Shown: one piece after another, positions 12,838 to 13,330 of the stretch
Numbering within the stretch: position 1 is the first letter of the stretch
Layout: every line of letters begins with the position of its first letter
IMG/VR virus record: IMGVR_UViG_2645727970_000008
Direction: 5' to 3' (one strand)
Length of the DNA stretch: 15,836 bases
DNA from: a virus
Taxonomy: Duplodnaviria > Heunggongvirae > Uroviricota > Caudoviricetes
Program-made: the position numbers and the translations under genes
Notes under the pieces: model-generated
Told to the model about the DNA's origin: nothing
Databases searched by the model: none
Seen by the model: only the letters and a program-made list of their open reading frames with translations

Positions 12838-12868
12838 CAGGAAAAAACAAAACCCGCCGAAGCGGGTT
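12838..12868 (-). terminator. Rho-independent terminator at the 3' end of the hok transcript
   Basis: Minus strand reads AACCCGC-TTCG-GCGGGTT followed by TTGTTTTTTCC. A second hairpin (GGCGAGGG/CCCTCGCC) lies just after the hok stop. Confidence 0.75.
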
Positions 12869-12936
12869 AAGTGCGGGTGCGTTGAGGATGCCTGACTCAT
12901 CAGAGGTGGCGAGGGATTTCCCCCTCGCCTGGTCTC

Positions 12937-13092
12937 TTACTCCTCAGGTTCGTAAGCTGTGAAGACAGCGACCTCCGTCTGGCCGGTTCGGATTCGTACC
13001 TCGCAGAGGTCTTTCCTCGTTACCAGTGCCGTCACTATGACGGTTAAACAGATGACGATCAGGGCGATTAACATCGCCTTTTGCTGCTTCAT
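12937..13092 (-). CDS. hok: Hok-family type I toxin (51 aa)
   Basis: Minus-strand translation MKQQKAMLIALIVICLTVIVTALVTRKDLCEVRIRTGQTEVAVFTAYEPEE matches the Hok/Gef family. Below the track cutoff, found by manual translation. Confidence 0.9.
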   Translation of the reverse strand: MKQQKAMLIALIVICLTVIVTALVTRKDLCEVRIRTGQTEVAVFTAYEPEE

Positions 13093-13330
13093 AGCCTGCT
13101 TCTCCTTGACCTTTCGGTCCGTAAGAGGCTAATCTCTATGTGTCGCATAGATATGGCCTCAGATTAATGTTAAGCGTCTTGCAGGACGCGTAATGTTAAC
13201 TGGGGCTTTTCTCTATCTGCCTTTTGGTGTTCATGCCTGAGACAGATAGCCTCAAGCACCCGCAGTCATTCTACTTAACTAAGATTTCCCCGCAAACCGT
13301 TTTTGTCCGGCACAGTAAATATCCAACTAA
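13093..13330 (-). promoter_or_regulatory. hok mRNA leader with an overlapping mok-like short frame; presumed location of the antisense Sok RNA gene on the plus strand
   Basis: Structured leader with several inverted repeats. A short frame ATGCGACACATAGAG... ends overlapping the hok start. Sok boundaries could not be fixed by eye. Confidence 0.45.

Follow-up and report, generated by a model that had tools for sequence, protein, structure and literature searches.

The presence of a hok-like toxin gene in a prophage raises the question of whether the gene is part of a complete type I toxin-antitoxin locus, with its leader frame, antisense RNA and mRNA switch elements, and of what such a locus would do in its phage. 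This question is addressed here for positions 12838 to 13330 of a 15,836-nt stretch of caudoviricete DNA (IMG/VR record IMGVR_UViG_2645727970_000008), referred to below as the window. The hok/sok system is the textbook type I toxin-antitoxin system, and the feature is an ordinary one, annotated in thousands of genomes; what is added here is fine detail, namely the short form of mok, the coordinates of the individual elements and the strand of the Rfam match. The original prediction placed a hok-family type I locus in the prophage, and indeed the Hok ORF, its leader and the 3' hairpins all lie inside 12838-13330, on the minus strand, a strand that the prediction had not given. All features below are on this strand unless the plus strand is named. 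With high confidence, these positions constitute a complete hok/sok-family type I locus of the hokD type, which a lambdoid prophage carries in its early-right (nin-like) region.

The toxin gene (12937-13092), delimited from the ORF list, Pfam, PHROG and the alignment with Escherichia coli K-12, encodes 51 amino acids followed by a stop codon, MKQQKAMLIALIVICLTVIVTALVTRKDLCEVRIRTGQTEVAVFTAYEPEE. Its description as a canonical 51-aa Hok toxin is supported by the matches of the ORF (13092-12937) to Pfam HOK_GEF (PF01848; 82.9 bits against a cut-off of 22, E 1.2e-23) and to PHROG 251, "MokW-like host killing" (2.8e-33). All scores against the NCBIfam Hok (subfamily) models were under their cut-offs, and PADLOC returned zero matches for Hok or its neighbours. 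The amino-acid sequence is that of K-12 HokD, the alignment being free of any difference in the CDS, and the protein is publicly annotated as hokD (WP_000813254.1). A Shine-Dalgarno sequence AAGGAG (13102-13107) precedes the gene; it is partly paired to nt 136-139 of the mRNA in the full-length fold, and its complement forms part of the -35 region of Sok. The Tyr47 codon UAC lies in a UACG motif (12951-12954) in a stretch identical to K-12 hokD. In hokC, hokD and hokE of K-12, Tyr codons in this motif undergo A-to-I editing by TadA (Tyr to Cys), with about 6% editing in hokD (PMC5630033, PMC12214031), and judging from the sequence this candidate editing site is intact in the present hok.

The best full-length match of the window is a complete-looking lambdoid prophage by potCD in E. 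coli O111:H2 (95% coverage, 97.5% identity). Read along the hok strand, a cro-like gene, replication genes, small nin-like ORFs and an AT-rich spacer lead up to hok, which is followed by a phrog_1212 ORF, DUF968/HNH, RusA, a Q-like antiterminator, a methyltransferase and two tRNAs, and then by a SASA esterase, holin, lysozyme, Rz and terminase. The predicted position upstream of the nin/Q region is thus a fair description, since the phrog_1212, DUF968/HNH, RusA and Q-like genes follow hok on the same strand. The tRNA genes (8772-8844 and 8598-8671, both minus strand), downstream of the Q-like and methyltransferase genes, are annotated in the O111 prophage as tRNA-Ile and tRNA-Arg, as is usual for lambdoid/Stx-type phages. 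A full-length Rfam match to the sRNA STnc100 (7709-7898, minus strand; 132.4 bits, gathering score 47) is located between the tRNA genes and that for the SASA esterase, and an IraM-like ORF (7348-7683) lies opposite, on the plus strand. The AT-rich spacer (31-40% GC) contains, just upstream of the hok promoter, an unannotated small hydrophobic ORF (13351-13569, minus strand) of 72 aa if read from a GTG, but more plausibly of 59 aa, with a GGGGG in front of its ATG (13530) and a probable extent of 13351-13530. This ORF (13351-13569) had no match in Pfam, PHROG or PADLOC, and its homologues are all close ones, from Escherichia and Shigella, uniformly annotated as "hypothetical" and in many cases truncated.

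Of 5426 complete E. coli genomes, 4955 contain sequence related to a 621-bp region of the window, and 2522 contain at least 80% of this region; the number of places per genome has a median of two and a maximum of ten. Four records are 100% identical, and hundreds show 99-100% identity. The best of the matches listed carry the annotation "type I toxin-antitoxin system toxin HokD". Matches also extend to 79 phage records, among them 933W, in which mokW, hokW and sokW are annotated, and to many non-mobilizable plasmids of about 90-100 kb.

The Qin prophage of K-12 carries hokD (relF) at the same prophage position as the hok gene of the window, upstream of DUF968 (ydfU) and Q-like genes. The two loci are 97.7% identical over 12843-13106, and have the CDS, 3' UTR, fbi element and terminator in common. 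The similarity stops at 13106, however, 14 nt before the hok ATG, and beyond this point Qin has relB-relE and lacks the tac and ucb elements, the mok start and the Sok gene, whereas the window retains the full native leader. The window therefore carries intact a locus that was truncated by relBE in K-12, and it is useful as a clean reference copy of the uninterrupted hokD locus, which is absent from K-12. The K-12 hokD gene has been described as being without canonical components owing to rearrangement (PMC12214031). The anticipated lack of relBE-like genes, by which the locus was set apart from Qin, was confirmed: none is annotated next to hok in the matching prophages, and the similarity to K-12 is limited to 12843-13106. 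The relB-relE cassette itself was observed in a second setting, being 99% identical through the hok start codon between K-12 Qin and a Citrobacter plasmid (NZ_CP050011, positions 1-443 of the locus). It is joined to hokD in Qin and to an R1-type hok in the Citrobacter plasmid, the junction being the conserved hok Shine-Dalgarno sequence (ACAGGAGAAG). This junction is also where a second upstream cassette, unrelated to relB-relE, is joined in a Klebsiella plasmid and one hokD locus from IMG/VR.

The full-length hok mRNA, of about 417 nt and carrying both mok and hok, would extend over 12845-13261, its 5' end being set by position 1 of the Rfam model (GGGUGCUUGAGG) and its 3' end by the terminator. 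A putative promoter read from the sequence (13268-13296), with a -35 TTTGCG (13296-13291), a 17-nt spacer and a -10 TAGAAT (13273-13268), would start transcription at G13261; the TAGAAT hexamer is kept in most relatives. A generic sigma-70 scan of 12700-13500 found no promoter, calling neither that of hok nor that of Sok, the former because its -35 is weak and the latter because its -10 matches at only 3 of 6 positions, and both promoters were therefore assigned by alignment to annotated sok genes and by direct reading of the sequence. The leader matches Rfam family RF01794 over the full model (positions 1-157) at 13261-13090 on the minus strand, with 106.7 bits against a gathering score of 59 (E 7.8e-24), in keeping with the structured leader that had been proposed. 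RF01794, although named "sok antitoxin", is modelled in the sense of the hok mRNA, its 5' end being tac and its last three positions the hok AUG. The match thus corresponds to the sense leader, to part of which Sok is complementary, and should not be read as the Sok gene; an automatic annotation derived from it would assign "sok" to the strand opposite to its own and overstate its length by about 100 nt.

The minimum free energy (MFE) fold of the hok mRNA, at -171.9 kcal/mol, lies well below that of dinucleotide shuffles (z = -7.7; -7.73 before rounding). Within it the tac element (nt 1-12, GGGUGCUUGAGG; 13250-13261) pairs with the complementary fbi element (nt 375-387, CCUCAAcGCACCC; 12875-12887), just before the terminator, in a duplex of 12 bp interrupted by one bulged C. 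At -21.5 kcal/mol, this duplex is reached by only the two fbi-containing windows among 451 windows of 70 nt on the minus strand of the 15.8-kb stretch. Downstream of fbi the mRNA ends in an intrinsic terminator found by a terminator scan (12843-12868), with the stem-loop AACCCGCTTCGGCGGGTT (12868-12851) followed by a U-run, and upstream of it lies a further 3'-UTR hairpin, GGCGAGGGGGAAAUCCCUCGCC (12908-12929), which appears in the folds and occurs in many alleles among relatives. The 3' hairpins noted originally therefore find counterparts in the hairpin at 12929-12908, the terminator stem at 12868-12851 and fbi at 12887-12875.

The pairing of the two mRNA ends is not peculiar to this locus. 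A tac/fbi-type 5'-3' pairing located 48-59 nt past the hok stop codon was found in hokW of 933W, in K-12 hokB, in two R1-type plasmid loci, and in a Vibrio and an Aeromonas plasmid, and the pairing is kept across seven loci from four genera with compensatory changes. Thus, for example, hokB has GGGUGCCUGAGA/UCUCAuGGCACCC, the R1 type GGCGCUU/AAGCGCC and the Vibrio locus GGGUGCUCUUGG/CCAAcGAGCACCC. For this comparison the duplex search was restricted to 25-95 nt past the stop codon and hokC was dropped. A search for 5'/3' duplexes without this constraint gave spurious sites, 183 nt past the stop in an R1-type locus and, for K-12 hokC, inside IS186, which starts 20 nt past the hokC stop codon and has led to the loss of fbi. 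Three loci (L088, and the Klebsiella and Citrobacter plasmid loci L090 and L091) were left out of the covariation analysis, their leader being replaced by other cassettes with no tac-like 5' end.

The mok-like leader ORF, obtained by three-frame translation, comprises 19 codons (MRHIEISLLRTERSRRSRL) and a TGA (13089-13148). Its ATG (13148-13146) lies at -56 relative to hok, and so does not give the in-frame form of about 70 aa, starting at -57, of mokW- and mokC-type loci, in which Mok is extended into Hok. The stop codon TGA (13091-13089) shares bases with the hok ATG in the sequence ATGA. Such an AUGA stop/start overlap is a classical arrangement for translational coupling. The mok-like overlapping frame of the original prediction is thus present, but as an upstream ORF of 19 codons whose overlap with hok amounts to ATGA alone. 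A mok of the R1 type, continuing through hok, can be dismissed, as the corresponding frame, although open for 63 codons, has no ATG, GTG or TTG start. The mok Shine-Dalgarno sequence GAGG (nt 102-105; 13157-13160) is located 8 nt before the mok AUG, and in the full-length fold it is masked by a ucb-like box GCCCCA (nt 56-61; 13201-13206), as taken from the MFE pair table. The mok start codon itself lies in a hairpin (13132-13155) that is visible both in the Rfam structure line and in the folds, would be the target of the 5' tail of Sok, and is the most divergent stretch among relatives.

Folds of the mRNA shortened in silico from its 3' end give a purely thermodynamic prediction of a switch of the R1 kind. 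With cuts at nt 360-372, tac (nt 1-8) is predicted to re-pair with ucb (nt 54-60), and the mok Shine-Dalgarno sequence, which is held by ucb in the full-length fold, shifts to downstream boxes in the truncated folds. Among these is a candidate dcb box CCUC (nt 356-359; 12903-12906), predicted to pair with the mok Shine-Dalgarno sequence in two of the truncated folds (nt 360 and 365). With a cut at nt 355, tac is predicted to pair with nt 20-29 as a 5' hairpin. The three predicted folds correspond to the closed, truncated and metastable forms of the hok mRNA of plasmid R1 (PMC9841398).

A putative Sok antisense RNA of about 69 nt (approximately 13142-13210, plus strand) can be placed opposite the leader by transferring the ends of the annotated sokW of 933W. 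It would start near G13142 and comprise a free 5' tail of about 13 nt and a long hairpin, ending in GGGGCUUUU (13202-13210); its predicted fold has -29.8 kcal/mol (z -4.4). The RNA would be complementary to nt 52-120 of the hok mRNA, including the mok Shine-Dalgarno sequence and AUG. Its putative promoter (13106-13135, plus strand), also inferred by alignment, has a -35 TTGACC (13106-13111), an 18-nt spacer and a -10 TAATCT (13130-13135), and aligns with the regions upstream of the annotated sokW of 933W, sokC and sokB of K-12 and R1-type sok. The -35, the -10, the hairpin and the terminator/U-tract are conserved across this alignment.

Known systems are related to this locus to different degrees. 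The hokW-mokW-sokW locus of the Stx phages 933W and Sp5 has the same architecture and is 90.3% identical at the nucleotide level over 12865-13307, with identical tac and fbi elements, and HokW differs from the Hok of the window at 4 of 51 residues. Differences concern mokW, which is a 70-codon in-frame extension of hokW whereas mok of the window has 19 codons ending in AUGA, the loop of the mok-start hairpin, including a 2-nt indel, and the location, hokW lying near the right end of its phage genome and hok of the window in the nin-like region. The hok/sok (parB) locus of plasmid R1 shares with the window tac/fbi, ucb, a mok with 19 codons before hok and a terminator, and its weak hok promoter and its Sok, directed against the mok initiation region, have putative counterparts here. 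Its Hok, however, is only about 43% identical to that of the window, its tac and fbi differ by compensatory substitutions, its mok runs out of frame through hok for 70 codons where that of the window ends at the hok start, and its carrier is a plasmid rather than a prophage. The K-12 loci hokC (gef)/mokC/sokC and hokB/mokB/sokB belong to the same family, with the same leader 5' end (GGGUGC...) and an equivalent position of Sok; mokC is in frame with hokC, while mokB is out of frame and overlapping, and neither hokC nor hokB of K-12 sits in a prophage.

By analogy with R1 and hokW-sokW, the full-length hok mRNA would be inert and stable, in a closed form with tac paired to fbi and the mok ribosome-binding site masked by ucb. 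Slow trimming of the 3' end would remove fbi and allow refolding, with tac now pairing to ucb. The refolded mRNA would then be either bound by Sok and cleaved by RNase III, or translated. Ribosomes engaged on mok would traverse the hairpin that contains the hok Shine-Dalgarno sequence and terminate at the hok AUG, in the AUGA overlap, and translation of hok would thereby be coupled to that of mok. Hok would then damage the inner membrane. Because Sok would be short-lived, Hok would be made whenever synthesis of Sok stops.

Several events could bring about such a stop. Prophage induction appears to be the most likely trigger, and is ranked above addiction and phage exclusion because hokW-sokW is the one close relative in a prophage for which direct data exist. 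HokW is toxic and is counteracted by sokW in a partly RNase III- and Hfq-dependent manner; on induction by mitomycin C or heat, sokW RNA vanishes and HokW is found in the inner membrane about 1 h before endolysin; when hokW-sokW is deleted, growth arrest comes about 40 min later and phage release falls to half (PMC8621323). This induction-linked role may not transfer to the present locus, as hokW sits elsewhere in its phage. The present locus lies in the early-right region and has the same orientation, and it is tempting to speculate that read-through early transcription could in consequence collide with the convergent Sok promoter. Sok synthesis could conceivably also stop when the element is lost, i.e. 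in addiction, or when an infecting phage shuts off host transcription. A main role in addiction or abortive infection, by the same mechanism and as envisaged in the original prediction, instead of assistance in the lysis of its own host, is a real possibility, although we consider it unlikely. It is favoured by the stabilization of plasmids through post-segregational killing by R1 hok/sok (PMC9841398), by the reduction in T4 plating and plaque size by high-copy R1 hok/sok, according to work cited in PMC8621323, and by the approximately four-fold enrichment of hok in prophages, yet the same survey found no enrichment of hok near defence systems (bioRxiv 10.1101/2025.08.07.668861). The lack of PADLOC matches mentioned above also speaks against such a role, as does the fact that a single-copy integrated prophage is seldom lost by segregation. 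Moreover, the only direct test in a prophage relative found a role on induction that benefits the phage (PMC8621323).

A further aspect concerns the variability of the Sok target. In 67 IMG/VR loci with a Hok identical to that of the window, the 45-nt segment that comprises the mok start and the Sok 5' tail occurs as 17 alleles, which differ by multi-base replacements and indels. Column entropy among these loci peaks at 0.76 bit (13136-13157, nt ~105-126), against about 0-0.05 in the CDS. By allele count, however, the 3'-UTR hairpin (12908-12938) is about as polymorphic as the mok-start hairpin, and the idea of a hypervariable recognition site is therefore weaker than the entropy plot suggested. 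Same-genome prophage pairs, of which three only are informative, carried different Sok-target alleles in two cases and identical ones in one.

The form of mok also varies, as shown by counts in two samples of prophage contigs from IMG/VR that overlap with each other. Most of the sampled relatives (about 65 of 80 and 87 of 101) have the in-frame 70-codon mok starting at -57, and the 19-codon allele of the window was present in 12 loci of either sample (out of 82 and 101, respectively; about 12-15%). Since it recurs in 12 loci of each sample, the short mok is a minority allele and not a private mutation. In R1, translation of mok is needed only up to the hok initiation region, and stop codons in mok past the hok start leave hok translation unimpaired (PMC9841398); 19 mok codons precede hok in R1 as well as in the window. 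As only the upstream part of mok was needed in the R1 mutagenesis, the short mok retains the part that counts. The short mok could in principle reduce coupling, but we infer that it would couple hok as well as the long form does. The allele of the window may then be a natural "minimal mok", with 19 codons and an AUGA overlap, that bears out the R1 mutagenesis, and the Sok-target alleles could define orthogonal Sok/hok classes through which co-resident prophages spare each other's toxin. These two suggestions are put forward jointly, and as a tentative and rather doubtful proposal.

The locus might instead be a silent relic, with the right anatomy but inert in vivo and hitch-hiking on the prophage, as reported for other chromosomal hok loci. 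The sub-consensus promoters and a mok frame unlike the majority form would fit such a state. It is nevertheless improbable in view of the regulatory elements, which are all intact and mutually consistent, of the occurrence of the exact 621-bp region at 99-100% identity in hundreds of records, of the activity of the close relative hokW-sokW, and of the conservation of that part of mok which R1 requires. That the -1 frame difference of mok uncouples hok and leaves a regulatory null with an intact toxin ORF is very improbable, for although mok of the window stops at the hok start while most relatives have the in-frame 70-codon form, mok translation in R1 is needed only up to the hok initiation region, the AUGA overlap is the classical coupling arrangement, and the allele is found in many independent contigs with otherwise intact loci.

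The complete hok/sok locus proposed here is only partly reflected in public records: annotation pipelines mark the hok CDS only, leaving out mok, the Sok RNA and the other RNA elements. A 59-aa "hypothetical protein" called by PGAP in matching genomes at 12716-12895 on the plus strand extends, on the opposite strand, across fbi, the hok terminator and the phrog_1212 ORF at its 3' end; it has no family match and is probably an over-call.
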